Assembly: GCA_038214545.1 (NCBI GenBank)
Contig: JBBQRU010000106.1
Coordinates: forward strand, 1 to 19,631
Source of the DNA: Cyanophyceae cyanobacterium
GTDB lineage: Bacteria; Cyanobacteriota; Cyanobacteriia; Cyanobacteriales; Nostocaceae
Length of the DNA stretch: 19,631 nucleotides
Reading direction: 5' to 3'
A program made the position numbers and the translations under genes. The notes beneath the pieces are model-generated. The model was not told the DNA's origin. It was given only the letters and a program-made list of their open reading frames with translations, and did not search any database. Positions 1,584 to 17,872 of the stretch are shown piece after piece; position 1 is the stretch's first letter, and each line of letters begins with the position of its first letter.

Positions 1584-1612
1584 GAACGCCAGTTGTGTTT
1601 AAATTTTGCAAA

Positions 1613-1647
1613 ACCACAACTGTCAACACCTACATTGTCAGAGTTAA
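1613..1647. repeat. 35-bp direct repeat, copy 2
   Basis: Perfect match to 1002-1036. It lies inside the spurious 5' extension of the 1595-3262 ORF. Confidence 0.9.
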
Positions 1648-1732
1648 AAATTTGTTGTATTATATATACTACAAGAGTTATAACAGTACCGAACGAATAT
1701 CTTCCATCGGGCAAGTTTGCCTATCTTTAGCC

Positions 1733-3262
1733 ATGAAAATTTCTATGTGGGAAACTTTTTATATCAAACCCAACGAAATAGGCATTTTATATCACCGGAG
1801 TGACTTCCAGAAAATTTTGCGCCCTGGTACTTATAGGTATTTTGGTTGGCATTGGCAAGTAACAACTTATGACCTCAACCAGCCAGAAGCTAAAATAGAA
1901 AACTTAGAGTTGCTGTTGCGGAACCATGCTGTACTACAGCAAGATCTTTTAGTAGTACGCACAGCATTCAACCAAGCAGCTTTAGTGCGCTGGTGTCAAA
2001 ATTGGGTAAGTGTTGCACCCAACCAACTGCGAGCTTTTTGGCGTGGTTTTATAGACGTAGAATCTCATCTCTTCAACTTAGAAGAGAATTTAGAACTCCC
2101 TGGGGAATTCGTGCAGCAATTACGCGGTATTACTTTAAATGGATTGAAAAAGTACCAAATCTCCGAGTCTGAGATGGGGCTATTGTATGTACAGAATAAT
2201 TTTATCCGACCTCTCGAACCTGGTGATTATGCATTCTGGTCTGTGGATCGAGATGTCAAGATTCAGACTTTGAGCCGAATTATACCTAATCCGCAATTTC
2301 CCTTAGAAGATGTGTTGATTCAACATCCTGATTTTGTCGCCGCCTATTGTGAAATTGTGCAGTTAACTGGTCAGCAGGTAGGGATTGTGCGCTATCAAGG
2401 TAAGGTGATTGCTATCCTCCCACCACACAGCCGTAAACTATTTTGGCAAGGAGTTGAAGTCGAAGCAATTGAGATTACAAATGAAGCCAAGTTACCACCC
2501 GACTTAGTTGCAGAGTTAGTTTCTGGTTCATCTGAGATACTTTCTTTAAGCCACAATTCTTTACATATTTGTGAAGTTAAAGCGCAGCATGTCGGGCTAC
2601 TGTACGTTAATCAAGAGTTTCAATTTCAACTTCCACCGGGAATACATGCTTGGTGGATATTTGGACGTTCTTGGCAAACAGAAGTCATTGACCTCCGCTT
2701 GCAAACTATCGAATTATCAGGTCAAGATATTCTCTCTAAAGATAAAGTCCCGCTGCGCTTGAATTTAACTGCTGGTTTCCGGGTGACAGACCCATTACCA
2801 GCTAAGAATGGTTTGTCGGATATTGCTAGCTTTTTGTATAGAGAGCTACAGTTTGCTCTGCGTGGAGCTGTTGGCGAACGGACACTAGATGCTTTACTGG
2901 AAGATAAGGGGGCGATCGATAGAAGCATTGCTGATTACATTCGCCAGAAAACTCTCAACTACGGCATAGAATTTGAATCTGTGGGAGTGAAAGATATTAT
3001 TCTTCCGGGTGAGATTAAGACTATTTTGAGTAAGGTTGTAGAAGCAGAAAAAGCAGCCCAAGCAAACGTCGTGCGTCGTCGAGAAGAAACTGCAGCGACT
3101 CGCAGTATGTTAAATACTGCCAAAGTCATGGAAGATAACCCTGTCGCCTTGCGCTTGAAGGAACTAGAGGTGCTAGAACGGATTGCGGAGAAGATAGATC
3201 GAATTCAGGTTAACGGTAGCTTGGATAACATCTTAACAGACTTGATTCGCATTAACAGATAG
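1733..3262 (+). CDS. SPFH/band-7 (stomatin/prohibitin/HflKC-like, slipin family) protein with three extra N-terminal SPFH-start-like modules
   Basis: C-terminal ~250 aa match SPFH hallmarks: GLLYVNQEF..LPPGIHAWW..VIDLRLQ..DKVPLRLNLTAGFRVTDP, then a coiled-coil EAEKAAQANVVRRREETAA. Start moved to M47 (ATG 1733) because 1595-1732 contains the 35-bp repeat. No N-terminal TM segment is evident. Confidence 0.7.
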   Translation: MKISMWETFYIKPNEIGILYHRSDFQKILRPGTYRYFGWHWQVTTYDLNQPEAKIENLELLLRNHAVLQQDLLVVRTAFNQAALVRWCQNWVSVAPNQLRAFWRGFIDVESHLFNLEENLELPGEFVQQLRGITLNGLKKYQISESEMGLLYVQNNFIRPLEPGDYAFWSVDRDVKIQTLSRIIPNPQFPLEDVLIQHPDFVAAYCEIVQLTGQQVGIVRYQGKVIAILPPHSRKLFWQGVEVEAIEITNEAKLPPDLVAELVSGSSEILSLSHNSLHICEVKAQHVGLLYVNQEFQFQLPPGIHAWWIFGRSWQTEVIDLRLQTIELSGQDILSKDKVPLRLNLTAGFRVTDPLPAKNGLSDIASFLYRELQFALRGAVGERTLDALLEDKGAIDRSIADYIRQKTLNYGIEFESVGVKDIILPGEIKTILSKVVEAEKAAQANVVRRREETAATRSMLNTAKVMEDNPVALRLKELEVLERIAEKIDRIQVNGSLDNILTDLIRINR

Positions 3263-4043: not shown

Positions 4044-4377
4044 ATTCTATTTCCTGAATAACCGCACTTTCCGCCATTATTAATGTTTATTGACATAAAA
4101 ATTCACCTAAAAAGCGAAATTAACAAAATATAAGTTGTGTGCCAGTATCCTTAAATACAATATTGTGATTGCAAGCTTGATTTACTAGAGTTTAGCTCTG
4201 TTGGAGTGCTTGCAATAGTTGAAATATGCCGACCAAATCAGATATCTCTTGAGAAATGTTGCAACATGTCAACTGCTAATACTTAGTATTTATGACTGCA
4301 AACTTGCGCTCGCAAATTGCGTAATATTCAGGAAAAATTTCGGTCTTTTCAATTAAACTATTTACTAGCTTGAGGGT

Positions 4378-5841
4378 TTGAGCATGACTACTAAAATAGA
4401 AGCAAGACAAAGCAATTCTGGTCTGCGTTCCGACTGCCTTCCCTTCTCCGATGTGATCGCCCAATCGATCGCTAACATTGCCCCGACGCTAACACCGACA
4501 ATAAATGCTCCATTGGTGTTTGCTACTGCTGGAGTTGGCACTTGGTTGACTTACATGTTTGCTACTATTGGCTTGATATTTGTTGGTATCAATATTAACC
4601 AATTTGCTCGCCGCTCTGCCTCACCCGGTTCTTTATATGCCTACATTGCCAGAGGATTAGGTCCAACGGCTGGTGTAATTACTGGTTGGGCATTGATTTT
4701 GGCTTACGTATTTACCGCAATGGCAGTGATGTGTGGCTTTGCCAACTATGGCGAAGTTGTACTTAGTCCGTTAGGCATTCATCCCTCACCAATATTTCTG
4801 TTTGCTATCTGTACTGGTATTGCTTGGTATATCGCCTATCGCGACATCAAGCTATCCACTGTGATCATGCTGTTGATGGAAGCAGGCTCGGTGGCGTTGA
4901 TTGTTATTTTGGGTGCGATCGTCTTGTTCAAGAAAGGTTACGCAATTGATGCCTCTCAATTATCACTCCAAGGAGCTAAGCCGGGAGGGATTATGTTGGG
5001 TTTGGTATTGGCAGTATTCAGCTTTGTGGGGTTTGAAAGTGCGACAACACTGGGAGATGAAGCCAAGCGTCCGTTACAGAATATTCCGCGTGCAGTCATC
5101 ATCAGCACTGTAATTTCTGGGTTATTCTTTGTGCTTATTTCCTACGTTGAGATCATCGGTTTTGAAGGCTTCAAAACACCGTTTGACAAAAGCGAAGCAC
5201 CACTGAGCGATCTGGCTAATATTGCGGGAGTGGGATTTTTTGGCGTATTGATTGCGATCGGGGCGATGATTAGCTTCTTTGCTTGTACTCTAGCTAGTAT
5301 CAATGCGGGAGCGCGAATCTTCTTCTCGATGGGTCGGCATGGTATTTTCCACAATGTCATTGGTCAGGCGCATGGTAGTAATGAGACACCTCATGTTGCT
5401 GTGACACTAGCAGCGATCGTCACTTTTCTGGCTCCGGCTTCCACTACCCTATTTGGCGTGAAACTCCTAGATAATTACGGCTACTTTGGCACGATCGCTA
5501 CCTATGGTTTCTTAGTTGCCTATATTTTGATTTCGATCGCTGCTCCCGTCTATCTCCACCGCGAACATCAACTACGCTTTACAGATGTCCTGTTCTCCGT
5601 TCTCGGAATCGGATTCATGATAATTCCAGTACTTGGGAGTGTGGGTCTTCCTGGTAAAGATAGTTTATTTCCCATACCTGCAGCGCCTTACAATGTCTTC
5701 CCCTACTTGTTCTTACTTTACTTGGTCGCCGGCGGTGCTTGGTTCCTAATTATACGTCTGCGTTCTCCAGAAATTATCGAGCAGATGGAAGCTGACATTG
5801 AAACCTCTCATACTCGTTTTAACGCCATGAAAAAAGTCTGA
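4378..5841 (+). CDS. APC-superfamily amino acid/amine permease (12-TM)
   Basis: 487 aa, multiple hydrophobic helices, APC-family-like N-terminal region (AQSIANIAPTLTP...GSLYAYI). GAGGG SD before the ATG. Exact substrate not inferable. Confidence 0.75.
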   Translation: MSMTTKIEARQSNSGLRSDCLPFSDVIAQSIANIAPTLTPTINAPLVFATAGVGTWLTYMFATIGLIFVGININQFARRSASPGSLYAYIARGLGPTAGVITGWALILAYVFTAMAVMCGFANYGEVVLSPLGIHPSPIFLFAICTGIAWYIAYRDIKLSTVIMLLMEAGSVALIVILGAIVLFKKGYAIDASQLSLQGAKPGGIMLGLVLAVFSFVGFESATTLGDEAKRPLQNIPRAVIISTVISGLFFVLISYVEIIGFEGFKTPFDKSEAPLSDLANIAGVGFFGVLIAIGAMISFFACTLASINAGARIFFSMGRHGIFHNVIGQAHGSNETPHVAVTLAAIVTFLAPASTTLFGVKLLDNYGYFGTIATYGFLVAYILISIAAPVYLHREHQLRFTDVLFSVLGIGFMIIPVLGSVGLPGKDSLFPIPAAPYNVFPYLFLLYLVAGGAWFLIIRLRSPEIIEQMEADIETSHTRFNAMKKV

Positions 5842-5844
5842 AAT

Positions 5845-5938
5845 AGGGTGTGGGGTGCAGGAGAACAGAATATGCGCTTCCTCCTAGACTCTTTCCATTT
5901 GTCGAATGGGATTTCCCCACACCCACCCCTACACCCCA
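5845..5938 (+). terminator. G-rich/C-rich inverted repeat (agggtgtggggtg ... ccccacaccc) plus inner hairpins immediately after the permease stop; possible intrinsic terminator or RNA stability structure
   Basis: gggtgtgggg at 5846-5855 is complementary to ccccacaccc at 5916-5925. No clean U-run follows. Confidence 0.3.
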
Positions 5939-5983
5939 TTCTTGCTCAGCCTGTTGCAATTAACGAAGAATGGAATTAGATCG

Positions 5984-6025
5984 GTAACACTGCATACATA
6001 TTTGCAATAGCTTGAGAGATAGCGT
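5984..6025 (+). promoter_or_regulatory. NtcA-type (class II CRP-family) activated promoter: GTAacactgcaTAC-N22-TAGCGT
   Basis: GTA-N8-TAC at 5984-5997. TAN3T -10 box at 6020-6025, exactly 22 nt downstream. 30 nt upstream of the amine oxidase ATG (6055). Confidence 0.5.
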
Positions 6026-6054
6026 AGTAAAACTCATATTTGGTGAAAGGTATC

Positions 6055-7998
6055 ATGACGACCACACCTCTACACCCAGCCCCCACACAAATTGCCTCAG
6101 TTGTACATCCCCTCGAACCACTGACAGCGAAAGAAATTGCGGCGGCGGTGGCGATAGTCCGCACCGAAAAGATATTGGGCAGAAGTTTTCGCTTTGCGAC
6201 TGTTGTTTTAAAAGAACCCTCCAAGTCAGTTGTACTCAACTTCAACGATGGCGATAAAATTGAGCGCCAAGCATTTCTGATTTTATTAGATAATGCAACG
6301 GCAAAAACTTATGAGGCGATCGTCTCCATTACCAAGAGCACGATTCTCTCATGGAAAGAAATTCCTGATGTGCAACCAGGGATTATGCTAGATGAGTTTA
6401 TCGAGTGTGAAGCAGCAGTCAAAGCCAATCTGGAATTTCGTGCCGCCTTGCAGAGAAGAGGCATCACCGATATCGATTTGGTCATGGTAGACCCGTGGTC
6501 TGCAGGTAACTTTGGCATTGCCGAAGAAGCCGGATTAAGGCTTTCCCGTGCCTTATGTTGGATTCGCTCAGAACCTCATGATAATGGCTATGCTCGTCCC
6601 ATTGAAGGCGTCATCCCTGTTGTCGATCTCAACACAATGCGAGTGCTGCGGGTCGAAGATCATGGCATTATCCCGTTACCGCCGAATCCAGGTAACTACG
6701 CCCAAGATTATATCCCTCAGTTTCGTACAGATTTGCAACCTCTGGAGATTGTCCAACCGCAAGGACCTAGCTTCCACGTTGAAGGTCATAAAGTCTACTG
6801 GCAAAAGTGGCATTTCCGCATTGGATTTACTCCTCGCGAAGGATTAGTACTACACACTATTGGCTATGAAGACCAGGGACGGATTCGCCCGATTATTTAC
6901 CGAGCATCTTTGGCAGAAATGGTGGTACCATACGGCGATCCGAGTCCGGCGCACTATCGCAAAAATGCTTTTGACGTAGGTGAGTACGGTTTGGGAATGC
7001 TTGCAAACTCACTGACATTAGGCTGCGATTGTCTGGGTGAGATTCGCTACTTTGATGCCACAATGACGAATAGCCGAGGTGATGTAGCTGTGATTGCAAA
7101 TGCGGTGTGTATGCATGAAGAAGATTATGGTACTCTTTGGAAGCATGTAGACTGGCGGAATAACCATACAGAAGTTAGGCGATCGCGGCGTCTAGTAGTA
7201 TCCTTCGTGGCTACGGTTGGTAACTATGAATACGGATTCTTCTGGTATTTCTACCAAGATGGCACTATCCAACATGAGGTCAAGCTGACAGGTATAGTTA
7301 ATACTAGTGCTGTTGCGCCTGGTGTGACACCTAAGTATGGAACGCTGATTGCGCCTGAACTTAATGCTCATATTCACCAACACTTCTTTAACATGCGTTT
7401 AGATATGATGGTGGATGGTCAGAATAACTCGGTGTGCGAAGTTAACACTGAAGCTGTCCCTCGTGGTTCAGAGAATCCGCATGGTAATGCTTTCTTTGCG
7501 TCATCAACTTTATTACCAACAGAATCAGCCGCACAACGGGTAATCGATCCTTTTAGTGGGCGATATTGGAAGATTATCAATCCGTCGGTGCCGAATAGTT
7601 TAGGACAGCCTGTAGGATATAAGTTATCTCCTGGTGACAATATTTTGCCTTTTGCTGATGCTGAATCTAGTTTAATCAAGCGTGCAGGCTATATTAATAA
7701 GCACCTGTGGGTGACTCCTTACAGTCCAGATGAGATGTATCCTGCGGGAAATTATCCCAACCAACATCCAGGCGGTGATGGATTACCCAAGTGGACACAG
7801 GAAAATCGTGCGATTGAGGATACTGACTTGGTGGTATGGTACACCTTCGGACATCATCATGTTCCTCGCCCTGAAGACTGGCCAGTGATGCCTACAGGCT
7901 ATATTGGTTTTATGCTCAAACCCGTGGGGTTCTTCGATCAAAGTCCAGCAATGGATGTACCTCCTTCAGTTCCGAAAAAGGGTGCTTGCTGTAACTAA
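6055..7998 (+). CDS. Copper-containing (topaquinone) primary-amine oxidase
   Basis: TPQ consensus T-x-x-N-Y-E-Y (ATVGNYEYGFFWY). Copper His ligands HIHQHFFNMRLD and GHHHVPRPEDWPVMP. Start at ATG 6055 with GAAAGG SD; the ORF is open from TTG 6040. Confidence 0.9.
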   Translation: MTTTPLHPAPTQIASVVHPLEPLTAKEIAAAVAIVRTEKILGRSFRFATVVLKEPSKSVVLNFNDGDKIERQAFLILLDNATAKTYEAIVSITKSTILSWKEIPDVQPGIMLDEFIECEAAVKANLEFRAALQRRGITDIDLVMVDPWSAGNFGIAEEAGLRLSRALCWIRSEPHDNGYARPIEGVIPVVDLNTMRVLRVEDHGIIPLPPNPGNYAQDYIPQFRTDLQPLEIVQPQGPSFHVEGHKVYWQKWHFRIGFTPREGLVLHTIGYEDQGRIRPIIYRASLAEMVVPYGDPSPAHYRKNAFDVGEYGLGMLANSLTLGCDCLGEIRYFDATMTNSRGDVAVIANAVCMHEEDYGTLWKHVDWRNNHTEVRRSRRLVVSFVATVGNYEYGFFWYFYQDGTIQHEVKLTGIVNTSAVAPGVTPKYGTLIAPELNAHIHQHFFNMRLDMMVDGQNNSVCEVNTEAVPRGSENPHGNAFFASSTLLPTESAAQRVIDPFSGRYWKIINPSVPNSLGQPVGYKLSPGDNILPFADAESSLIKRAGYINKHLWVTPYSPDEMYPAGNYPNQHPGGDGLPKWTQENRAIEDTDLVVWYTFGHHHVPRPEDWPVMPTGYIGFMLKPVGFFDQSPAMDVPPSVPKKGACCN

Positions 7999-8092
7999 CA
8001 TTAGTTTGCTAGAGGTAGTTGACAAGATGCACGGTTCTTGCACACACTGATGAGTGCAATTTTCTGAATCTAATTTGTAAGAAGCTGATGCC

Positions 8093-9328
8093 ATGCCATT
8101 ACGGTTATTAAAGTTGGCGCTATCGAAACAACAAGCGCGAATGTTCCGGTCTCACGACCATCTCAAATCAAGTTACGATGCGGTGATTATTGGTGGCGGC
8201 GGTCACGGACTTGCTGCCGCTTATTATCTCGCTAGAGATTATGGGATGCATAATGTTGCTGTTTTAGAAAAAGGCTACATTGGCGGTGGCAATACTGGAC
8301 GGAATACCACGATTATTCGCTCGAATTATCTCACTCCGGAAGGGGTGAAATTCTACGATGAGTCAGTCCGATTGTGGCAAGATTTATCACAAGACTTTGA
8401 TCTGAATTTGTTTTACTCAAATCGCGGTCATTTCACTTTAGCTCATACTGATGCTGCTGTGCGGACGATGCGCTGGCGGGCTGAAGTTAACAAGCATTTT
8501 GGTATTGATAGCGAGTTAGTTGGTCCTGCGGAAATTCAACAGGCTTGTCCGCAAATTGATCTGTCGTGTGGTGGATATGCACCGATTTTAGGGGCGTTGT
8601 ATCATGCTCCTGGAAGCATTGCCCGACATGATGCAGTAGCTTGGGGATACGGTCGCGGTGCTGATATGCGAGGTGTTGAAATTCATCAGCAAACAGAAGT
8701 TTTGGACATTACGGTAGAAAGCGATCGCGTGACGGGAATCCAAACTAGCCGGGGATATATTTCGACTCCTCGTGTTCTTTGTGCTGTTGCTGGATCTACA
8801 CCGAGGATTTTGCAGATGGTAAACTTGCGATCGCCTCTTTATATTCATCCTCTCCAAGCAATGGTCAGTGAACCGATGAAAGCTTGGTTAGATGCGATTA
8901 TTGTGTCTGGAAGTTTGCATGTCTACGTCAGCCAGACCGCACGGGGTGAGTTGGTGATGGGGGCTTCGCTTGATCCTTATGAGTTACATTCTACGCGATC
9001 GACATTAGATTTTGTCGAAGGACTGGCGGCACATATGTTGGAATTGTTTCCGTTTTTGTCTCATGCCAAAGTCGTGCGTCAGTGGGCGGGGATGGCTGAT
9101 ATGACGCCGGATTTTGCGCCTATTATGGGTAAAACTGCGATTGAGGGGTTTTATCTGGATTCGGGTTGGGGAACTTGGGGTTTTAAGGCTACGCCTGTAT
9201 GTGGCAAAACTATGGCTTATACTGTTGCTTGCGATCGCAATCATGAGTTGATTACTGATTTTTCTTTGGATCGATTTGCTAGGTTTCAGTTGGTGGGTGA
9301 GAAGGGTGCGGCTTCGGTGGGTCATTAA
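8093..9328 (+). CDS. mgdA: Heterotetrameric sarcosine oxidase beta-subunit family (SoxB); by context N-methylglutamate dehydrogenase subunit A
   Basis: YDAVIIGGGGHGLAAAYYLA FAD dinucleotide fold, NTTIIRSNYL, ~411 aa. Followed by soxD-, soxA- and soxG-like genes. Confidence 0.8.
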   Translation: MPLRLLKLALSKQQARMFRSHDHLKSSYDAVIIGGGGHGLAAAYYLARDYGMHNVAVLEKGYIGGGNTGRNTTIIRSNYLTPEGVKFYDESVRLWQDLSQDFDLNLFYSNRGHFTLAHTDAAVRTMRWRAEVNKHFGIDSELVGPAEIQQACPQIDLSCGGYAPILGALYHAPGSIARHDAVAWGYGRGADMRGVEIHQQTEVLDITVESDRVTGIQTSRGYISTPRVLCAVAGSTPRILQMVNLRSPLYIHPLQAMVSEPMKAWLDAIIVSGSLHVYVSQTARGELVMGASLDPYELHSTRSTLDFVEGLAAHMLELFPFLSHAKVVRQWAGMADMTPDFAPIMGKTAIEGFYLDSGWGTWGFKATPVCGKTMAYTVACDRNHELITDFSLDRFARFQLVGEKGAASVGH

Positions 9329-9330
9329 TT

Positions 9331-9407
9331 TAACCGCAAAGGACACTAAGGACGCGAAGGAAGAAAGAAAGAAGGTAAAGAGAAGAAGGTAAAGAGAAGA
9401 AGGGGAG
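9331..9407 (-). repeat. Short dispersed repeat (minus-orientation copy of the gtcctt...ggtt / TTTCTTTCTTCCTT family) with a 14-nt tandem duplication gaaggtaaagagaa x2
   Basis: Reverse complement of 9331-9370 matches 13367-13402. Purine-only tract 9355-9407. Tandem 14-mer at 9371-9398. Confidence 0.7.
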
Positions 9408-9434
9408 TTTACTAATTATTTGGGACTGCTGTAT

Positions 9435-9695
9435 ATGAAAGTTATTGTTTGTCCGGTTAATGGTTCTCGTTCTGTTTCGGAGTTTGTTTGTAGTGGTGAG
9501 GTGCGTTTGATGCCTGATCCACAGGGGGTTGATGATGTAGTTTGGGCTGATTATATTTTTAATCGCAATAGTATACCGGGGATTAATACTGAATGGTGGT
9601 GTCATACACCTAGTAATACTTGGTTTGTTGCTGAACGTAATACTCAGACTGATGAATTTCTCCGGACTTATTTGTATGGTGAGGAGGTTTTATGA
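9435..9695 (+). CDS. mgdB: Sarcosine oxidase delta-subunit family (SoxD); by context N-methylglutamate dehydrogenase subunit B
   Basis: ~86 aa, N-terminus MKVIVCPVNGSRSVSEF fits the SoxD MxxIxCPxCGxRxExEF pattern. Stop overlaps the next start (ATGA). Confidence 0.7.
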   Translation: MKVIVCPVNGSRSVSEFVCSGEVRLMPDPQGVDDVVWADYIFNRNSIPGINTEWWCHTPSNTWFVAERNTQTDEFLRTYLYGEEVL

Positions 9696-12613
9696 GTCAG
9701 CGGTTGTCGCCTATTTTGGGTGAGTGGATCGATCGCCGTCGGATGATCGGTTTCACTTTTGAAGGGACTCATTTTTATGGATATGCGGGAGATACTATTT
9801 GTAGCGCTTTATGGGCTTCTGGACAATGTATCCTTGGACGGAGTTTCAAGTATCATCGTCCTCGGGGGATTTTGAGTTTTGCGAATCATGATATTAATGC
9901 TTTGATGCAGTCGGGACAGCAGCTTAGTGTCAGGGCTGATGTGACGCTGTTGGATGATGGGATGGTGCTTTCGGCGGTGAATACTAGTGGGGGGGTGATG
10001 CACGATCGCGCTAGTGTGCTCAATTTCTTCTCTGCTTTTTTACCTGTGGGATTTTACTATAAGGCATTTCATGGTAAGCGTTTATTTCCTTTTTGGGAGC
10101 GGGTGATTCGTTCGATTTCGGGGTTGGGAAAGCTGGATTTTTCTACTCCTCATGTTCGGACTGCAAAACGGTATGACTTTTGTGATGTCTTGGTAGTTGG
10201 TGGTGGTGTGTCGGGTTTGTCGGCGGGATTAGCTGCTGCTGATGCTGGTGCTGATGTGGTAATTGTGGATGAGAATTCACGGGTTGGTGGTGCGGGTGGG
10301 TATCAAATTGGTGGTGATGTTTCGCGGAGTGAAAAGACACAGGCTTTAGTTAAAGCTGTTGCTGAGCATCCACGTATACGTGTTTATATTGAGACTTTGG
10401 CAGCAGCGTATTATATTGATGGTTGGGTGCCTTTAGTCGATCGCGATCGCATGACGAAAATGCGAGCAAAAGCGACGATTATTGCTAGTGGCGCTTACGA
10501 ACAGCCTGCGGTTTTTCGCAATAATGACCTTCCGGGTGTAATGTTAGCATCAGCGGCGCAACGGTTAATTTATCGCTATGCTGTGAAACCTTTTAATCGC
10601 GCGGTTGTCTTAGTTGCTAACAATGATGGTTATCGGGCGGCGGTTGATTTAATTCAGCACGGTGTCACCATTAATGCAATTATTGATTTACGCGATCGCT
10701 ATCCAGAAAATCAGCTCACGCAGACTTTGAAAAACAAAGGTGTGGTAATTCTGACTCAACACTGTATTTATGAGGCGACAAATTTAGGTGGACATGGTGT
10801 GACGGCGGCGATCGTTTGTCCGCTAGATGCAAATGGTTTGCCAAATCCTCGATTAAAGCAAACAATAGCTTGTGATGGTATTGTTATGAGTGTTGGTTGG
10901 GCACCGGCGGCAAATTTGCTGTATCAAGCTGGGACTAAAATGGGCTGGAGCGAGCATTTGCAGCAATTCGTGCCAGATATTTTACCACTAAGTGTTTTTG
11001 CTTGCGGACGCGTCAATGGTGTGTTCGAGTTTACACAAAAACTCTTAGACGGTCATCGCGCTGGACTAGAAGCGGCGGCTCATTTGGGTTTGGTAGAAAA
11101 AGCTGAGATAAATATCGTACCGGAATCAGAGTGTCCATCACATCCGTGGGCGATCGTTGAGCATCCTGTAGGTAAGAATTTTGTTGATTTTGATGAAGAT
11201 TTGCAATATAAAGACCTTACCGATGCGATCGCGGAAGGATTTGATAATATTGAGTTGCTGAAACGCTACACTACTGTCGGGATGGGACCGAGCCAGGGTA
11301 AACATTCCAATATGAATGCTCTGCGGATATTGGCTCGGATTACAGGTAAATCTCCAAAAGAGGTGGGTACAACGACGGCAAGACCTTTTTTCCATCCTGT
11401 ACCATTGTCTCATTTAGCGGGGCGAGGTTTTACACCCGAACGACGCACGCCATTACATAGTCGTCATGCGGCAATGGGCGCAAAATTTATGTTAGCAGGT
11501 GTGTGGCAACGACCTGAATATTATGCGCGATCGCGCGACCGTGAGGAATGTATTCGCACTGAAGCCGAGGCAGTCCGAAATAGTGTAGGTATAATTGATG
11601 TCAGCACGTTAGGTAAACTAGAAGTGCGCGGTGCTGATTCGGCTGAGTTTCTAGAACGTGTTTACACCGGACGCTATAGTAATCTTAAAGTTGGCATGAC
11701 TCGCTATGCCTTGATGCTTGATGAAGCTGGCATTGTGATAGATGATGGTGTGATTGCAAGGTTGTCGCCAGACCATTTTTACTTTACTACGACAACTTCA
11801 GGCGCAGCCAATATTTATCGGGAATTATCTCGTTTGAATACAATTTGGCGATTAGATTGCGGTATGGTCAATTTAACGGGGGCGCGATCGGCAATCAATC
11901 TTGCTGGTCCTTTTGCTCGTAAAGTATTGGTTAAATTGATGCAGATGGATCTTTCTAGCACTGCTTTTCCCTATCTGGGTGTACGTGAAGCCAGAATTGC
12001 AGACATTCCGGCGGTTTTGATGCGGGTTGGGTTTGTCGGTGAATGGGGCTACGAAATACACGTTGCGGCTGAATCGGTTCCGGCGTTGTGGGATGCACTC
12101 GAAGATGCCGGAAAAAACTTCGATATTTTGCCCTTTGGCGTTGAAGCACAACGGTTGCTGAGACTGGAAAAAGGACACTTAATTATTGGTCAAGATACCG
12201 ATGCGCTGACTACACCAAGAGAAGTAAATTTAGAATGGGCAGTCAAAATGGATAAACCGTTTTTCATCGGTCAGCGTAGTTTACAAGCGATCGCCAAACA
12301 ACCACTCAAGCAAAAGCTAGTAGGATTTATGCTGGAATCACTTCCAGAAACACCGCCGCAAGAGTGTCATTTGGTAATCGAAAATAATGAGATTGCTGGT
12401 CGAGTGACAAGTATTGCTTTTAGTCCCGCTTTAAAGCAATTCATTGGACTTGCTTATGTCAAGCCAGAAATGGCAGAGAAAGGCAATTATTTTTCAATTC
12501 GTTTATCGGATGGAGCGTTAGTCAAGGCGATCGTTACTCCTACCCCATTTTACGATCCAGATAACTTACGGCAAAAAGCCGAAACCGCCATAATGGAGGA
12601 AGTTACTGCATGA
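9692..12613 (+). CDS. mgdC: Sarcosine oxidase alpha-subunit family (SoxA, with C-terminal GcvT-like folate-binding domain); by context N-methylglutamate dehydrogenase subunit C
   Basis: 973 aa. VVGGGVSGLSAGLAAADAGADVVIVDE dinucleotide fold. C-terminal aminomethyltransferase-like region (GFVGEWGYEIH...). Coupled to flanking genes by ATGA overlaps. Confidence 0.8.
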   Translation: MSQRLSPILGEWIDRRRMIGFTFEGTHFYGYAGDTICSALWASGQCILGRSFKYHRPRGILSFANHDINALMQSGQQLSVRADVTLLDDGMVLSAVNTSGGVMHDRASVLNFFSAFLPVGFYYKAFHGKRLFPFWERVIRSISGLGKLDFSTPHVRTAKRYDFCDVLVVGGGVSGLSAGLAAADAGADVVIVDENSRVGGAGGYQIGGDVSRSEKTQALVKAVAEHPRIRVYIETLAAAYYIDGWVPLVDRDRMTKMRAKATIIASGAYEQPAVFRNNDLPGVMLASAAQRLIYRYAVKPFNRAVVLVANNDGYRAAVDLIQHGVTINAIIDLRDRYPENQLTQTLKNKGVVILTQHCIYEATNLGGHGVTAAIVCPLDANGLPNPRLKQTIACDGIVMSVGWAPAANLLYQAGTKMGWSEHLQQFVPDILPLSVFACGRVNGVFEFTQKLLDGHRAGLEAAAHLGLVEKAEINIVPESECPSHPWAIVEHPVGKNFVDFDEDLQYKDLTDAIAEGFDNIELLKRYTTVGMGPSQGKHSNMNALRILARITGKSPKEVGTTTARPFFHPVPLSHLAGRGFTPERRTPLHSRHAAMGAKFMLAGVWQRPEYYARSRDREECIRTEAEAVRNSVGIIDVSTLGKLEVRGADSAEFLERVYTGRYSNLKVGMTRYALMLDEAGIVIDDGVIARLSPDHFYFTTTTSGAANIYRELSRLNTIWRLDCGMVNLTGARSAINLAGPFARKVLVKLMQMDLSSTAFPYLGVREARIADIPAVLMRVGFVGEWGYEIHVAAESVPALWDALEDAGKNFDILPFGVEAQRLLRLEKGHLIIGQDTDALTTPREVNLEWAVKMDKPFFIGQRSLQAIAKQPLKQKLVGFMLESLPETPPQECHLVIENNEIAGRVTSIAFSPALKQFIGLAYVKPEMAEKGNYFSIRLSDGALVKAIVTPTPFYDPDNLRQKAETAIMEEVTA

Positions 12614-13251
12614 AAACCCCACTCCGCCTTAGCCCCGTACACGATGCACTCCAAAAACTCAACGGTTCGTGGCGTGAATTAAACGGAATGCCAACGCTAT
12701 TTTCTCGCCCAGAAGACGCAGTCCATTCCACTCAATTAGGTATTGCCGACTTATCATTCCTGACACGCTTTGGCATCAAAGGAAAAAATGCCGCCAATTG
12801 GTTAATACAACAAGGAATCTCAGTACCCGATCGCCCTAATTCCTGGCATACACTACCAGAAGGAGGAATCATCGCTCGCCTAGGTTTAACCGAATTTCTC
12901 ATCGAAGACAGTATCACCTCCACCATAGCACCACAATTAACCGCAGCCTGTCAACACCCACCCACCAAAGTTTACCCAGTATTGCGCCAAGACTTAGCGA
13001 TCGCCCTAACAGGCACAGCCATCCCCGAACTCTTACGCCAAACCTGCAACATCAACTTTCAGGCACTTCCTCTCACAGAACACCCCGTCATCATAACCAC
13101 CGCCATCGGCGTAAATGTCACCATCATACCCAGCCAACCATGCTATAGAATTTGGTGTGATTACACCTATGGCGAATACGTTTGGCAAACATTATTAGCG
13201 ATCGTACAACAACTAGGCGGTGATGCGATCGGAGTAGAACAATATCTCTAA
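12610..13251 (+). CDS. mgdD: Sarcosine oxidase gamma-subunit family (SoxG); by context N-methylglutamate dehydrogenase subunit D
   Basis: 213 aa. ATGA overlap with the alpha subunit. Size and position typical for SoxG. Confidence 0.65.
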   Translation: MKTPLRLSPVHDALQKLNGSWRELNGMPTLFSRPEDAVHSTQLGIADLSFLTRFGIKGKNAANWLIQQGISVPDRPNSWHTLPEGGIIARLGLTEFLIEDSITSTIAPQLTAACQHPPTKVYPVLRQDLAIALTGTAIPELLRQTCNINFQALPLTEHPVIITTAIGVNVTIIPSQPCYRIWCDYTYGEYVWQTLLAIVQQLGGDAIGVEQYL

Positions 13252-13280
13252 AACTACCCACCTTCCACCAAAAAAATAAC

Positions 13281-13402
<122 letters not shown>

Positions 13403-13419
13403 TTCGTTAATTTATTAAA

Positions 13420-14748
13420 ATGACACCAACAGAAGCCAAAAAATTCTTAACAGACCATCAAATCAAATATGTCCTAGCGCAATTTGTCGATATACATGGC
13501 GTAGCCAAAACCAAAGCAGTACCCGCATCGCATTTTGACGACATACTCAACCCAGGCGCAGGCTTTGCCGGATTTGCCCTTTGGGGACTCGGAATGCAAC
13601 CCAACAGCCCCGACTTTCTCGCTGTAGGAGACCCGACAACACTAACATTAGTCCCGTGGATGCCCGGATATGCGCGAATGGCGTGTGTCGGACATGTTCT
13701 CGGTCAACCCTATGGATATGATGCACGATTTGTGTTAATGCAGCAAATCGAGCGACTAAAACAAAAAGGGTGGATAATGTACACCGGATTAGAGCCAGAA
13801 TTCTCATTGCTAAGTAGAGACGAAAATGGCAAAGTAGATTTAAGCGATCGCACCGACACATTAGACAAACCCTGCTACGACTATAAAGGTTTATCACGAA
13901 GTCGTGCATATTTAGAAAAATTAGTTAGCAGTTTGCAAACCGTTGGTTTTGACGTTTACCAAATCGACCATGAAGACGCCAACGGACAGTTTGAAATTAA
14001 CTACACTTATACAGATTGTTTAACCTCCGCCGATCGCTACATCTTTTTCAAAATGGCAGCTTCCGAAATCGCCAAAGAAATGGGATTAATTTGCTCCTTC
14101 ATGCCCAAACCATTTGCTAATCGCAGTGGTAACGGAATGCACATGCACATCTCAATTTCTGACGGCAAAACGAACTTATTTGCCGATGACAGCGACTCAA
14201 AAAAATTAGGATTATCCCAACTAGCATACCACTTTCTCGGTGGATTATTAGCTCACGCTCCGGCAATGACAGCGATTTGTGCGCCAACAATTAACTCTTA
14301 CAAGCGACTTGTAGTGGGACGTTCATTAAGTGGCGCAACTTGGGCACCAGCCTACATCGGCTATGGTGATAACAATCGCTCCAGTATGGTGAGAATTCCC
14401 GGCGGTCGCTTAGAATTTCGGCTAGCTGATGGCTCATGCAACCCTTATTTAGCTGCCGCTGTAGCAATCGCCGCCGGGTTAGATGGTATTGAGAAAAAAA
14501 TTGATCCAGGCGAACCACAGAATATTAATTTGTACGCCCTATCCGATATAGAATTAAAACAAAAAGGTATTCATACTTTACCTCAAAGTTTAAAAGAAGC
14601 CGTTGACGCCCTAGAATCTGATGAAGTAATCAAAGCTGCTTTAGGAGTTTTAGCTGATGAATTTATTAGCCTCAAACGGATGGAGTGGATTGAATACATG
14701 CGTCACGTATCCGATTGGGAAATACAGCGCTACTTAGAGTTTTTCTAA
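13420..14748 (+). CDS. gmaS: Glutamine synthetase family protein (type I-like, ~442 aa); by context gamma-glutamylmethylamide synthetase
   Basis: GS catalytic-domain motifs [17 protein letters not shown] and NSYKRLV...SWAP-like. Lies between soxBDAG-like and gltB-fragment genes, as in NMG clusters. Confidence 0.75.
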
Positions 14749-14759
14749 CAAGAGATTAA

Positions 14760-14905
14760 CGAACCACAAAGGACGCGCCAGCGTAGCGAAGCCGTCAGGC
14801 GTTAGGACACGAAGGAATACATAGCAAACTCTAACTTTCTTCTTTCTTCTCTTCGCGTTCTAACGCCTGACGGCTTCGCTACGCTGGTGTGTCCTTTGTG
14901 GTTCG
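14760..14905. repeat. 46-bp near-perfect inverted repeat (two inverted copies of the dispersed repeat, each with a 29-nt insert) with a ~54-nt loop; long RNA hairpin or MITE-like element
   Basis: 14760-14805 cgaaccacaaaggacgcgccagcgtagcgaagccgtcaggcgttag. Reverse complement of 14860-14905 is cgaaccacaaaggacacaccagcgtagcgaagccgtcaggcgttag. The 2 differences are both G vs A, so G:U-compatible in RNA. Confidence 0.85.
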
Positions 14906-14964
14906 GTAAAAGTATTTTTCAAAAATCAAATTAGAATACAATATCTATTGAAAGGGATTTTGCT

Positions 14965-15858
14965 ATGTGTGGAATCGTAGGATTGCTAATTAAAAACCCC
15001 GAATTAAGAAGTAGTTTAGGTGAGTTAATGGTACCAATGCTAATTGGAATGAGCGCACGCGGACCAGATTCAGCCGGACTAGCTGTGTTCACAGAAATGT
15101 TAGGCGAGCAATATCGAAAATACAGTCTTTATTCAACCGTACCTGACTTTAACTGGTCAAAAATTGCCCAAGACTTTGAAAAATATTTCCACGTTACCCC
15201 AACAATGGAAATTAATGGCAATCATGCAATTCTAGTTTCCGATTTGCTTCCCGAAAAAGTCAAGCACTGGTTTGGACAATATCCTGATTTGCATGTTCTT
15301 TCTACAGGTCGAGCCATCGATCTTTACAAAGACACAGGATCGCCTGTGGAGGTTGTCTCACGCTACGATTTCAAATCGCTTAAAGGTTCTCATGTTGTCG
15401 GTCACACGCGCATGGCGACGGAATCAGCAGTCACCCCAGCACATGCTCACCCATTCACAGCGGGTGAAGATTTTTGTCTGGTGCATAATGGTTCGCTGTC
15501 GAATCCACATCAAATTCGCCGTCAACTAGAGCCACTGGGGATTCATTTTGAGACAGATAATGATACTGAAGCAGCTTGTCGATTTTTAGAGTGGCGGATG
15601 CGCGAAGGTGATGATTTGGAAGCTGCTATTGAGAAAGGTTTTGAAGCATTAGATGGTTTTTATACTTTCTTGATGGGAACGGCTGATAAGTTAGCCTTGG
15701 TACGCGATCCTTTTGCTTGTAAGCCGGCGGTGGTTGCGGAGACTGATGATTATGTAGCGATCGCGTCTGAGTTTCGCTCCTTAGCGCATTTACCTGATGT
15801 TAAAAATGCAACTATCTATGAACCTGCACCTGAGGAAATGTACGTATGGAAAGCGTGA
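14965..15858 (+). CDS. mgsA: Class II (Ntn) glutamine amidotransferase domain protein, GltB N-terminal-like; by context N-methylglutamate synthase subunit A
   Basis: MCGIVGLL N-terminal nucleophile Cys2. 297 aa. AAGGGA SD before the ATG. Followed by the other two GltB-like fragments. Confidence 0.75.
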   Translation: MCGIVGLLIKNPELRSSLGELMVPMLIGMSARGPDSAGLAVFTEMLGEQYRKYSLYSTVPDFNWSKIAQDFEKYFHVTPTMEINGNHAILVSDLLPEKVKHWFGQYPDLHVLSTGRAIDLYKDTGSPVEVVSRYDFKSLKGSHVVGHTRMATESAVTPAHAHPFTAGEDFCLVHNGSLSNPHQIRRQLEPLGIHFETDNDTEAACRFLEWRMREGDDLEAAIEKGFEALDGFYTFLMGTADKLALVRDPFACKPAVVAETDDYVAIASEFRSLAHLPDVKNATIYEPAPEEMYVWKA

Positions 15859-16523
15859 CGTTTGATTTGGCAGGAACGCCTTTGCGTCAGGTAAATCATT
15901 TTTTACACCACGACAAGAGCCAGCACATCCAGATTCTTAACCCTGATGGGACACATAATATTGCTGTTGGCATTGATGCGACAATTGATGTGGAAATTCA
16001 CGGACATACAGGGTATTACGCTGCCAGTATGAATAAATTGGCAAATGTCACTATTTTTGGCAATGCTGGTACAGGTGTGGCGGAAAATATGATGTCGGGT
16101 CGAGTGCATGTGAAAGGATTTGCGTCAGTATCAGCGGGAGCCTCAGCACATGGCGGATTGCTGGTAATCGATGGCGATGCTGGTTTGCGTTGCGGAATTT
16201 CTCTCAAAGGTGGAGATATTGTGGTTGGTGGGAATGTGGGTAGTTTTAGTGCATTTATGGCACAAGCAGGAAGAATTGTTGTCTGTGGTGATGCTGGCGA
16301 TGCATTAGGCGACTCTATTTATGAAGCAGTGATTTACGTGCGGGGTAAAATTAAGTCCTTAGGTGCTGATGCTCAAATCGAGCCGATGTCTGAGGCAGAT
16401 TACAACGCCGTGAGCGAATTACTAGATAAAGCCGGATTTTCTTACAATCCAAGAGACTTTCAGCGCATCGCCGGTGCGAAGCAATTATATCACTGGAATG
16501 CTGATGCTAATCAGGAGTATTAA
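15846..16523 (+). CDS. mgsB: GXGXG-motif protein (glutamate synthase alpha-subunit C-terminal domain-like); by context N-methylglutamate synthase subunit B
   Basis: Repeated G-x-G-x-G beta-helix motifs (GNAGTGVAENM, VIDGDAGLRCG, VVGGNVGSF, VVCGDAGDALG). 225 aa. 13-nt overlap with mgsA. Confidence 0.75.
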   Translation: MESVTFDLAGTPLRQVNHFLHHDKSQHIQILNPDGTHNIAVGIDATIDVEIHGHTGYYAASMNKLANVTIFGNAGTGVAENMMSGRVHVKGFASVSAGASAHGGLLVIDGDAGLRCGISLKGGDIVVGGNVGSFSAFMAQAGRIVVCGDAGDALGDSIYEAVIYVRGKIKSLGADAQIEPMSEADYNAVSELLDKAGFSYNPRDFQRIAGAKQLYHWNADANQEY

Positions 16524-16525
16524 TT

Positions 16526-17872
16526 ATGAATATGAATCAATCGTCTCGCGAAGAATCTTGGGGATACGATCGCCGCATTCTCAGCTACATTCAAAATGCA
16601 GCAGCACACGGTTTGTATGAAATTCGCGGTTTAGGTGCAAAGCGTCGATTACCGCATTTCGACGATCTGGTGTTTTTGGGTGCATCGATGACACGCTATC
16701 CTCTCGAAGGCTACCGCGAGAAGTGCGTCACAAAAACGGTTCTTGGCACTCGCTACGCGACAAAACCGATTGAACTCGACATTCCAATTACGATCGCTGG
16801 CATGAGTTTCGGTTCGCTTTCGGCTAATGTTAAACAAGCGTTAGGACTCGCAGCGACTGAATTAGGCACCTCGACCACAACGGGCGATGGTGGTATGACT
16901 TCGGAAGAAAGACTTTCATCCCAGACGTTGATTTATCAATGTTTGCCTTCTCGGTATGGTTTCAACCCTGATGACCTGAGAAAAGCGGATGCGATTGAAA
17001 TTGTTATCGGTCAAGGTGCAAAACCAGGTGGTGGGGGTATGTTATTGGGGCAAAAAATCAATCCCCGCGTTGCCGAAATGCGAACCTTACCGGAAGGTGT
17101 AGATCAACGTTCTGCTTGTCGTCATCCTGACTGGACGGGTCCTGACGACCTGACTATTAAAATTCAGTCGTTGCGGGAACTGACTGATTGGGAAAAACCT
17201 ATATATGTCAAAGTGGGTGCATCGCGCACATTTAACGATGTCAAACTTGCAGTCCACTCCGGTGCGGATGTGATTGTGGTGGATGGGATGCAAGGCGGAA
17301 CTGCAGCTACCCAATCTGTGTTTATTGAGCATGTGGGTATACCTACCCTTGCGGCGGTACGTCAGGCTGTGGAGGCTCTGGAGGAGATGAATATGAAAGG
17401 GAAAGTTCAATTAATTATATCGGGTGGGATTCGTACTGGTGCAGATGTGGCGAAAGCGATCGCAATGGGTGCAGATGCTGTCTCTATTGGACAAGGCGTT
17501 TTAGTCGCAATGGGTTGCAATAGCGAAACTTATATTCAAGATGGCAAGCATTATTCCGCTGTTGAGGATTATAACGCATTAGGAACGGTTCCTGGATATT
17601 GCCATCATTGTCATACTGGAAAATGTCCGGTCGGTATAACAACGCAAGATGAAATTTTAGAGAAACGCCTAGAACCACAAGTTGGGGCGCGTCGAGTTAA
17701 GAATTATTTGCAAACTTTAAATATGGAGTTAACGGCGATCGCGCGTGCTTGCGGGAAGCAAAACATTCATCACCTCGAACGCGAAGATTTAGTCGCGCTG
17801 ACCATCGAAGCCGCCGCAATGGCGCACTTACCTCTTGCTGGTACCTCCTGGATTCCTGGAGTGACAAACTAA
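16526..17872 (+). CDS. mgsC: FMN-binding glutamate synthase central-domain-like protein; by context N-methylglutamate synthase subunit C
   Basis: GltB FMN-domain signatures (IVIGQGAKPGGGGML, VIVVDGMQGGTAAT, ISGGIRTGADVAKAIAMGAD). 448 aa. CAGGAG SD before the ATG. Confidence 0.8.
   Translation: MNMNQSSREESWGYDRRILSYIQNAAAHGLYEIRGLGAKRRLPHFDDLVFLGASMTRYPLEGYREKCVTKTVLGTRYATKPIELDIPITIAGMSFGSLSANVKQALGLAATELGTSTTTGDGGMTSEERLSSQTLIYQCLPSRYGFNPDDLRKADAIEIVIGQGAKPGGGGMLLGQKINPRVAEMRTLPEGVDQRSACRHPDWTGPDDLTIKIQSLRELTDWEKPIYVKVGASRTFNDVKLAVHSGADVIVVDGMQGGTAATQSVFIEHVGIPTLAAVRQAVEALEEMNMKGKVQLIISGGIRTGADVAKAIAMGADAVSIGQGVLVAMGCNSETYIQDGKHYSAVEDYNALGTVPGYCHHCHTGKCPVGITTQDEILEKRLEPQVGARRVKNYLQTLNMELTAIARACGKQNIHHLEREDLVALTIEAAAMAHLPLAGTSWIPGVTN

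Follow-up and report, generated by a model that had tools for sequence, protein, structure and literature searches.

A predicted N-methylglutamate pathway operon for methylamine nitrogen in a cyanobacterial genome

The gene content of a 19,631-nt stretch of DNA from a Cyanophyceae cyanobacterium of the Nostocaceae (contig JBBQRU010000106.1, assembly GCA_038214545.1) was analyzed, with emphasis on a set of eight genes resembling the N-methylglutamate (NMG) pathway of methylamine utilization. The whole stretch is called the window below, and all positions in it follow its own numbering. The listing of open reading frames (ORFs) gives eight complete ORFs, all on the + strand, within 8093-17872, in the order mgdABCD-gmaS-mgsABC. 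The first four are predicted to encode N-methylglutamate dehydrogenase: mgdA (8093-9328), a soxB-like flavoprotein subunit with a DAO domain; mgdB (9420-9695), a soxD-like small subunit (PF04267, 89 bits) whose likely start, from inspection of the reading frame, is the ATG at 9435; mgdC (9692-12613), a soxA-like large subunit of 973 amino acids (aa) with Fer2_4, Pyr_redox_2, SO_alpha_A3, GCV_T and GCV_T_C domains; and mgdD (12610-13251), a divergent subunit of 213 aa in the soxG position with a weak GCV_T match (27 bits). They are followed by gmaS (13420-14748), for a predicted gamma-glutamylmethylamide synthetase (glutamate--methylamine ligase), and by three genes for a putative N-methylglutamate synthase: mgsA (14965-15858), the amidotransferase subunit (GATase_6 and GATase_7 domains); mgsB (15846-16523), the GXGXG subunit (PF01493, 40 bits); and mgsC (16526-17872), the subunit binding flavin mononucleotide (FMN) (PF01645 'Glu_synthase', 322 bits). 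A sequence-only reading made before our analysis had described eight same-strand genes of sox-like, glutamine synthetase (GS)-like, Ntn-GATase, GXGXG and FMN content; they were found where it placed them, with matching domains. It had also called the genes mostly overlapping, which holds for three junctions, but one junction shows a 2-nt gap and three are occupied by spacers of 91, 168 and 216 nt. It had equated the gene order with that of methylotrophic proteobacteria. Among 161 related loci, which come from many phyla, 50 have this order, more than any other full arrangement; in Methyloversatilis universalis FAM5, the model methylotroph, the genes run gmaS-mgsABC-mgdABCD instead (PMC5023235), an order found in 11 of the 161. 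Counts of related loci refer here and below to the best 80 loci of each search, one search being a genome scan with one genome per species and the second a scan of metagenomes.

The GS-like protein was compared with characterized families and structures. In NCBIfam profile searches it scored 650.4 bits (cut-off 469.6) with TIGR03105, the GmaS family, historically called 'type III glutamate--ammonia ligase', while it stayed below the cut-off of both the GlnA model TIGR00653 (360.6 bits, cut-off 429) and the gamma-glutamylputrescine synthetase model NF045547 (284 bits, cut-off 650). Its best solved relative is MmGMAS of Methylovorus mays (PDB 9QUR; 719 bits, 69% identity over 440 aligned positions), followed by RhGmaS (PDB 7CQL; 364 bits, 45% identity) and a true GS (8S59; 289 bits, 39% identity). 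MmGMAS is a glutamate--methylamine ligase that ligates glutamate with ethylamine; methylamine is reportedly accepted, and bulkier amines as well (PMC12588301). In RhGmaS, the ammonium-binding Asp50' of GS is replaced by Ala (Ala48') and the catalytic Glu of the Glu-flap by Trp (Trp300); the catalytic residues are Asp177, Glu186 and Arg312, with Lys30' from the adjoining subunit (PMC7948447). The alignment shows both replacements in the window protein, with Ala50 in FAG where GS has FDG and Trp308 in ATWAP where GS has GYEAP; its Asp183, Glu192, Arg320 and Lys32 align with Asp177, Glu186, Arg312 and Lys30' of RhGmaS. Judged by profile scores, identities and diagnostic residues, this protein is by family a gamma-glutamylmethylamide synthetase, as had been proposed, and no clustering with GlnA or PuuA was seen.

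The three genes directly after gmaS come in the order amidotransferase, GXGXG, FMN domain. In GltB, the order of domains is amidotransferase, central domain, FMN domain, GXGXG, and a Pfam scan detected no GltB central domain among the cluster proteins. The mgsA product begins with MCGIVG, which provides the N-terminal Cys required by its amidotransferase class. Against GltB structures, among them the ferredoxin-dependent glutamate synthase 1LLW, MgsC scores no more than about 100 bits; among cyanobacterial loci it is 86-90% identical. At least part of the mgs set lies behind gmaS in 141 of the 161 related loci. A broken full-length gltB was rejected as an explanation, since the genes are not collinear with the GltB order, lack the central domain and show weak similarity to GltB. 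The idea that these GltB-like genes form a separate split synthase is supported by the permuted order, the low similarity and the linkage with gmaS.

For the four sox-like genes, the scores of the sarcosine oxidase families are systematically too low. MgdA obtains 469 bits with TIGR01373 (cut-off 529), MgdB 58.6 with TIGR01374 (cut-off 116.5) and MgdC 821 with TIGR01372 (cut-off 1164), and MgdD matches no NCBIfam model, the soxG model TIGR01375 included. At the structural level, MgdA gives 375 bits against the sarcosine oxidase beta chain 2GAG_B, and its His179 aligns with beta-His173, which we take to be the residue carrying the covalent FMN in sarcosine oxidase. MgdC gives 407 bits against 1VRQ_A; Pfam finds in it 2Fe-2S-type, FAD and A3 domains together with a folate-binding GCV_T domain at 245 bits. 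MgdA is 84-96% identical among cyanobacterial loci. MgdD, the least conserved subunit, occupies the same position in all of them with 49-82% identity, compared with 27-43% in other phyla; a similar divergence has been reported for MgdD of known clusters (PMC5023235). Within the reach of the contigs, 71 of the 161 loci show linkage of mgd genes to gmaS. From these scores the four genes do not appear certified as sarcosine oxidase: three stay under the family cut-offs and the fourth gives no match to soxG. The warning that homology alone would lead to mis-annotation proved justified in an annotated plasmid relative, that of Acidithiobacillus caldus, whose genes bear sarcosine oxidase-, GS- and glutamate synthase-type names: 'FAD-dependent oxidoreductase', 'sarcosine oxidase subunit delta', '2Fe-2S iron-sulfur cluster-binding protein', 'type III glutamate--ammonia ligase', 'class II glutamine amidotransferase', 'protein glxC' (the mgsB homologue) and 'FMN-binding glutamate synthase family protein'.

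The cluster is shared by a restricted set of cyanobacteria. The genome scan returned nine cyanobacterial loci (L001-L009) with GmaS 77-83% identical to that of the window; their hosts are Phormidesmis priestleyi BC1401, two Phormidesmis metagenome-assembled genomes (MAGs), Leptolyngbyaceae SL_7_1, FACHB-502, Hydrococcus sp. Prado102 and three uncultured genomes, which according to NCBI taxonomy span Leptolyngbyales and Pleurocapsales. Among the best 80 metagenome loci only three more were of cyanobacterial type, with GmaS identities of 95% (L082), 83% (L083) and 79% (L084). The cluster is thus present in 12 other cyanobacterial loci, with the same gene order as far as each contig extends. The next best GmaS matches belong to Burkholderiales (69-73%), and Burkholderiales and other Pseudomonadota together cover 67-73%. 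Each of the eight products is more similar to its cyanobacterial counterparts than to those of any other phylum. An exact-sequence search with GmaS of the window retrieved no identical record. In a GS-rooted neighbour-joining tree of this single protein (84 sequences), GmaS of the window and of L001-L009 group together as a single clade with a bootstrap support of 97 out of 100. Comparison of the window with four other cyanobacterial copies gave nonsynonymous divergence (dN) of 0.07-0.43 and synonymous divergence (dS) above 2 or not computable, so that in most comparisons only dN and the saturation itself are usable. Low dN with saturated dS points to an old divergence under purifying selection.

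The residence of the cluster in cyanobacterial DNA was examined with the HIP1 motif (GCGATCGC). It occurs 17 times in the window for 0.30 expected, a number reached in none of 200 shuffles; 13 of the 17 copies are in the cluster (1.33 per kb) and 4 in the flanks (0.4 per kb). Eight of the nine cyanobacterial genome loci carry 0.3-1.9 copies per kb, compared with 0.076 per kb in the 71 non-cyanobacterial ones; the cluster of the window is about 17 times denser than these non-cyanobacterial homologous loci. The GC content at third codon positions (GC3) is homogeneous over the cluster and the genes upstream, and lower in two downstream genes. The cluster is also found within a 2.45-Mb Phormidesmis contig (L007), and the BC1401 and FACHB-502 records are not labelled MAG. 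Its long residence in cyanobacteria, which had been deduced from HIP1 alone, is upheld by HIP1 density, the monophyly of GmaS and saturated dS with low dN; on this sequence evidence, contamination and recent transfer both appear very unlikely. Homologues were found on 271 plasmids, of which 98 are typed as mobilizable or conjugative, and this makes transfer plausible.

The region upstream of mgdA contains two further genes on the same strand. The first (4384-5841, +) encodes an APC-family permease (Pfam AA_permease and AA_permease_2), a candidate amine importer; the listed ORF begins with a TTG at 4378, and the likely start is the ATG at 4384, which is kept in L082. This permease matches only generic NCBIfam transporter models, all under their cut-offs. 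Homologues with 39-51% identity were observed on the same strand within 10 kb of gmaS-mgsABC in six non-cyanobacterial loci, from Burkholderiales and others (L012, L015, L039, L044, L050 and L098); in L012 the gene (14490-15887) lies directly 3' of mgsC. This recurrence suggests a dedicated, previously undescribed amine importer. The second gene (6055-7998, +) encodes a copper (topaquinone) primary-amine oxidase (NF008559, 1008 bits for a cut-off of 651) with the NYEY cofactor motif; its best solved relative is the phenylethylamine oxidase of Arthrobacter (1AV4, 561 bits). Linkage of the oxidase to the cluster was found only in the window and in L082, among the 161 loci. L082 (metagenome contig Ga0209512_1003712) is the closest relative of the window, with 88-90% nucleotide identity, and has the same layout: an SDR gene on the opposite strand, the permease (91% identical), the oxidase (same position, 94% identical) and the cluster, which is cut off within mgsC by the end of the contig. 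The arrangement is therefore not peculiar to one genome.

A gene present elsewhere is missing here. In the seven other cyanobacterial loci having an upstream flank, mgdA is systematically adjoined by a divergent gene for a regulator with an XRE-type helix-turn-helix (HTH) and a cupin domain, for example in L005 (4167-4862, -), L002 (4189-4833, -), L004 (3967-4629, -) and L009 (3021-3707, -). The same regulator, of PuuR-like architecture, is found in 96 of the 161 loci with 55-78% identity across phyla; it is absent upstream of the cluster in both the window and L082. Upstream of mgdA, regulator-bearing cyanobacterial loci share a region in which repeated GAAAC motifs surround a -35 element, TTGACA; of this region the window keeps the TTGACA part but not the GAAAC repeats. 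We found no functional study of this regulator in the literature; the work on FAM5 mentions only 'a putative transcriptional regulator', co-induced by methylamine. TmaR, an AraC-type regulator of Ruegeria, was considered as a counterpart and set aside, as it differs in kind from the XRE/cupin protein.

NtcA-activated (class II) promoters consist of a GTAN8TAC box followed, after about 22 nt, by a -10 element TAN3T. A candidate of this type lies on the + strand at 5984-6025 (box 5984-5997) and ends about 30 nt before the ATG of the oxidase: GTAACACTGCATAC, a spacing of 22 nt and TAGCGT, which fits this consensus in box, spacing and -10 element. Its counterpart in L082 reads GTAACATTGCTTAC, 22 nt, TAACGT, so that box, spacing and -10 are kept while 8 of 22 spacer bases differ. 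This conserved putative promoter is a clue to a role in nitrogen nutrition and should be taken as a lead only. No terminator-like site was predicted between the oxidase and mgdA, in a scan whose counts were no better than those of shuffled sequence; a promoter scan likewise did not exceed the shuffled level. A second GTAN8TAC box (GTATCCTTAAATAC) is located at 4145-4158, in the divergent region between the SDR and permease genes, where its strand is not assignable; L082 keeps it as GTATTATAAAATAC, along with about 30 nt downstream.

The three longer spacers of the cluster are filled with repeats. Spacer 1 (mgdA-mgdB, 9329-9419) contains an inverted copy of a short repeat (core 9332-9344) and a purine-rich 14-nt tandem repeat (2.9 units, 9364-9403). 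In spacer 2 (mgdD-gmaS, 13252-13419), a (TTCT)x24 microsatellite (13284-13379) is accompanied by a repeat core at 13392-13404. Spacer 3 (gmaS-mgsA, 14749-14964) is mostly occupied by a 154-nt palindrome (14756-14909) with 59-nt arms and two repeat cores; the arms are 92% complementary, the predicted RNA fold reaches -119.7 kcal/mol (z-score -16.7) and a T-rich stretch follows. The short repeat core GTCCTTTGYGGTT is present in four copies for 0.04 expected, all of them in these spacers: 9332-9344 (-), 13392-13404 (+), 14762-14774 (-) and 14891-14903 (+). Every copy adjoins a pyrimidine- or purine-rich simple repeat. The core is absent from L082, L083 and L084, where its ambiguous form was searched, and from the 80 genome loci, searched with the exact form GTCCTTTGTGGTT. 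It looks like a lineage-specific small mobile element or one similar to repetitive extragenic palindromic (REP) sequences. The gmaS gene is flanked exactly by the two arms of a 28-nt inverted repeat (13389-13416 and 14750-14777). In L082 the junctions corresponding to spacers 1 and 2 measure 10 and 30 nt, and the 154-nt palindrome is absent. Length changes of the microsatellite and tandem repeat could alter expression, and the palindrome could act on the transcript by stabilization, processing or partial termination. Scanning the whole window with Rfam revealed no riboswitch or other RNA near the cluster; matches to microRNA families at 14771-14896 merely reflect the long hairpin and were discarded. 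In cyanobacteria, insertions concentrate at the gmaS-mgsA junction: nucleotidyltransferase-like and methyltransferase genes are inserted there in Hydrococcus (L004, 11328-13186), and a 164-aa ORF in L001 (4446-4940).

Taken together, these observations make it likely that the window contains an NMG pathway operon which is complete, looks functional and lies in a cyanobacterial chromosome. By analogy with the proteobacterial pathway, GmaS would ligate methylamine to the gamma-carboxyl of glutamate in an ATP-dependent reaction, giving gamma-glutamylmethylamide. MgsABC, a split glutamate synthase-like enzyme in which MgsA would feed the FMN subunit MgsC, would convert it to N-methylglutamate and ammonia. 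MgdABCD would then oxidize N-methylglutamate back to glutamate, the methyl carbon passing to tetrahydrofolate through the GCV_T domain of MgdC. Overall, one ATP would be spent to turn methylamine into ammonia and methylene-tetrahydrofolate. The GCV_T domain of MgdC and the purU and folD neighbours of related clusters fit a folate-bound one-carbon product: purU is within reach of the cluster in 35 loci, including the cyanobacterial L009, and on the A. caldus megaplasmid purU and folD both flank it. In an oxygenic phototroph the pathway would most likely serve to scavenge nitrogen, and the one-carbon unit would join the folate pool. From methylammonium, cyanobacterial GS is known to form a gamma-glutamyl product, which accumulates; this dead end would be cleared by Mgs and Mgd. 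The same cluster exists in Thioalkalivibrio, Thiomicrorhabdus, Hydrogenovibrio and Acidithiobacillus, which we take to be chemolithoautotrophs; its presence in such sulfur oxidizers indicates use outside methylotrophy.

The permease and oxidase genes upstream, the NtcA-type promoter and the missing regulator further suggest that the 13.5-kb block 4384-17872 may be one amine-nitrogen unit under global nitrogen control. The operon would have been freed from its XRE/cupin regulator, joined with the permease and oxidase behind the putative NtcA promoter, and transcribed with them as a starvation-induced operon for general amine-nitrogen scavenging. We offer this extension tentatively, as a possibility with the odds rather against it.

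Several points weigh against the proposed pathway or its nitrogen control. GTAN8TAC boxes are not above chance in the window (6 for 2.8 expected), and no NtcA-type site was found upstream of mgdA in the window or in L002-L005, L007 and L009, so that the argument for nitrogen control comes only from the site upstream of the oxidase. The three repeat-filled spacers, one with a very stable hairpin, could interrupt or modulate transcription of the cluster. MgsABC and MgdABCD are putative assignments made from architecture and from close linkage to the well-supported GmaS; Paracoccus aminophilus pAMI6, considered as a validated anchor for both, was dropped because its paper assigns those genes by similarity alone. 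Neither purU nor folD is in the window, and we found no experimental evidence for the pathway in any cyanobacterium in the literature searched. Since MmGMAS, the nearest characterized GmaS, is promiscuous, methylamine may not be the sole substrate.

This last point leads to a broader alkylamine route, in which GmaS would act on several small primary amines such as ethylamine, the oxidase and permease would handle larger ones, and methylamine would be one of several substrates or play a minor part. It is suggested by the taste of MmGMAS for ethylamine and bulkier amines (PMC12588301), by the co-location, kept in L082, of a phenylethylamine oxidase-like enzyme with a generic APC permease, and by the regulator found elsewhere, whose PuuR-like HTH and cupin recall the regulator of a gamma-glutamylation pathway. 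However, genetic work in FAM5 connects the Mgs and Mgd partners with the use of methylamine (PMC5023235), the presence of purU or folD next to the cluster in many loci suggests a one-carbon product, and the link with the oxidase is confined to two of the 161 loci; we regard this route as unlikely. Taking the annotations at face value is much less attractive still. The genes would then encode a true heterotetrameric sarcosine oxidase, an extra GS and a split glutamate synthase, working in sarcosine or glycine-betaine breakdown and ammonia assimilation, and the best named family and structure matches are indeed sarcosine oxidase subunits, GS-type folds and the GltB FMN domain. Yet the sox-family scores are below the cut-offs given above, without any soxG match, the GS-like protein lacks the ammonium-binding Asp and flap Glu of GS and is far closer to characterized GmaS, and the Mgs genes, permuted with respect to GltB and of low similarity to it, travel with the others as a linked set across phyla. 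This leaves such an explanation highly improbable.

The two remaining alternatives concern the state and origin of the cluster rather than its chemistry. The invasion of all three longer spacers by repeats and the loss of the dedicated regulator could indicate a decaying, non-functional relic of horizontal transfer, but the eight reading frames are all intact, the catalytic residues are kept, dN is low with saturated dS against the four cyanobacterial copies, and L082 retains the same intact layout, so that decay is very hard to credit. As to an assembly or binning artefact, by which the cluster would derive from an associated proteobacterium, one may note that the nearest non-cyanobacterial relatives are Pseudomonadota at 67-73% and that homologues are common on plasmids. 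Against it stand a HIP1 density higher in the cluster than in its flanks and about 17 times that of non-cyanobacterial loci, a GC3 uniform with the upstream genes, the occurrence within the 2.45-Mb Phormidesmis contig and in records not labelled MAG, and the separate clade of the cyanobacterial copies; the probability of such an artefact seems close to negligible. An NMG pathway operon long resident in cyanobacteria remains the reading we prefer.

No report of the NMG pathway in a cyanobacterium was found in the full-text literature searched, which largely excludes subscription journals. As far as the searched literature shows, the cyanobacterial host group, the lineage-specific neighbours and the loss of the regulator are new, and the enzymes and chemistry are already known; what is gained therefore concerns the range of hosts, ecology and regulation rather than mechanism. 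Methylated amines form a pool of organic nitrogen that is found widely; in the searched papers their use is treated as a trait of heterotrophic bacteria. Methylamine-degrading marine Rhodobacteraceae are described as suppliers of ammonium to diatoms, and microalgae usually cannot use such compounds themselves (PMC7574528); Trichodesmium has been reported to be without Mgs and Mgd (bioRxiv 10.1101/2021.03.10.434842). A small, old group of cyanobacteria that has the complete pathway would let phototrophs act as a direct sink of methylamine, a prediction that runs against a common assumption. On the tentative reading of a starvation-induced amine-nitrogen operon, some benthic, mat-forming or polar cyanobacteria would use methylamine directly, without heterotrophs releasing its nitrogen, and its methyl carbon would feed the folate pool alongside photosynthetic carbon. 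Standard annotation hides this capacity under the names of GS, sarcosine oxidase and glutamate synthase. The prediction is easily testable, because the BC1401 and FACHB-502 genomes are public and their records, as noted above, are not labelled MAG.

Other features were observed near the start of the window. Two tRNA-like genes lie 2 nt apart on the + strand at 525-592 and 595-666 (Rfam tRNA, 50.9 and 56.4 bits). Of the two, ARAGORN recognizes the second alone, which it reads as a tRNA-Ile whose anticodon, AAT, is unusual; the first, examined by eye, seemingly has a 3-nt anticodon loop. A ParE-like toxin gene (Pfam PF24732) stands behind an overlapping 72-aa ORF (1099-1317 and 1314-1583, +), and the two are probably a toxin-antitoxin pair. 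They are followed by a gene for a 555-aa protein (1595-3262, +) whose SPFH/Band 7 domain is confined to the C-terminal third (residues 328-498); no family matches the long N-terminal part.

We compared the cluster with known systems. The NMG cluster of FAM5, found also in Methylocella silvestris BL2 and Methylobacterium extorquens, has by its description the same eight products, the same architectures and the same predicted methylene-tetrahydrofolate (PMC5023235), and MgdD is divergent in both cases; the host is a methylotroph in FAM5 and an oxygenic phototroph in the window. Besides the different gene order, the window has no adjacent regulator and presents instead a permease, a copper amine oxidase and a putative NtcA-type promoter. 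At the level of single enzymes, MmGMAS (9QUR, 69% identity) and Rhodovulum RhGmaS (7CQL, 45%) have in common with GmaS of the window the catalytic Asp, Glu and Arg and the Ala and Trp replacements. Sarcosine oxidase SoxBDAG (2GAG, 1VRQ) shares the four-subunit layout and the folds, but the genes of the window are linked to gmaS and mgs and not to sarcosine or creatine genes. The Puu pathway of E. coli follows a similar logic, in which a GS-like ligase gamma-glutamylates an amine before oxidation, and its regulator PuuR combines HTH and cupin domains like most NMG regulators; it differs from the window in that the GS-like protein of the latter is far below the cut-off of the Puu ligase model (284 versus 650 bits) and the downstream enzymes are unrelated. 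The nearest counterparts in gene order are the A. caldus ATCC 51756 megaplasmid (L081) and Thioalkalivibrio (L013 and L027), where the order is identical to that of the window and GmaS is 67-69% identical. These loci keep the divergent XRE regulator and purU, with folD and flanking transposases in A. caldus as well, and none has an amine oxidase. Their hosts are autotrophs, in which the pathway would supply nitrogen, not carbon.

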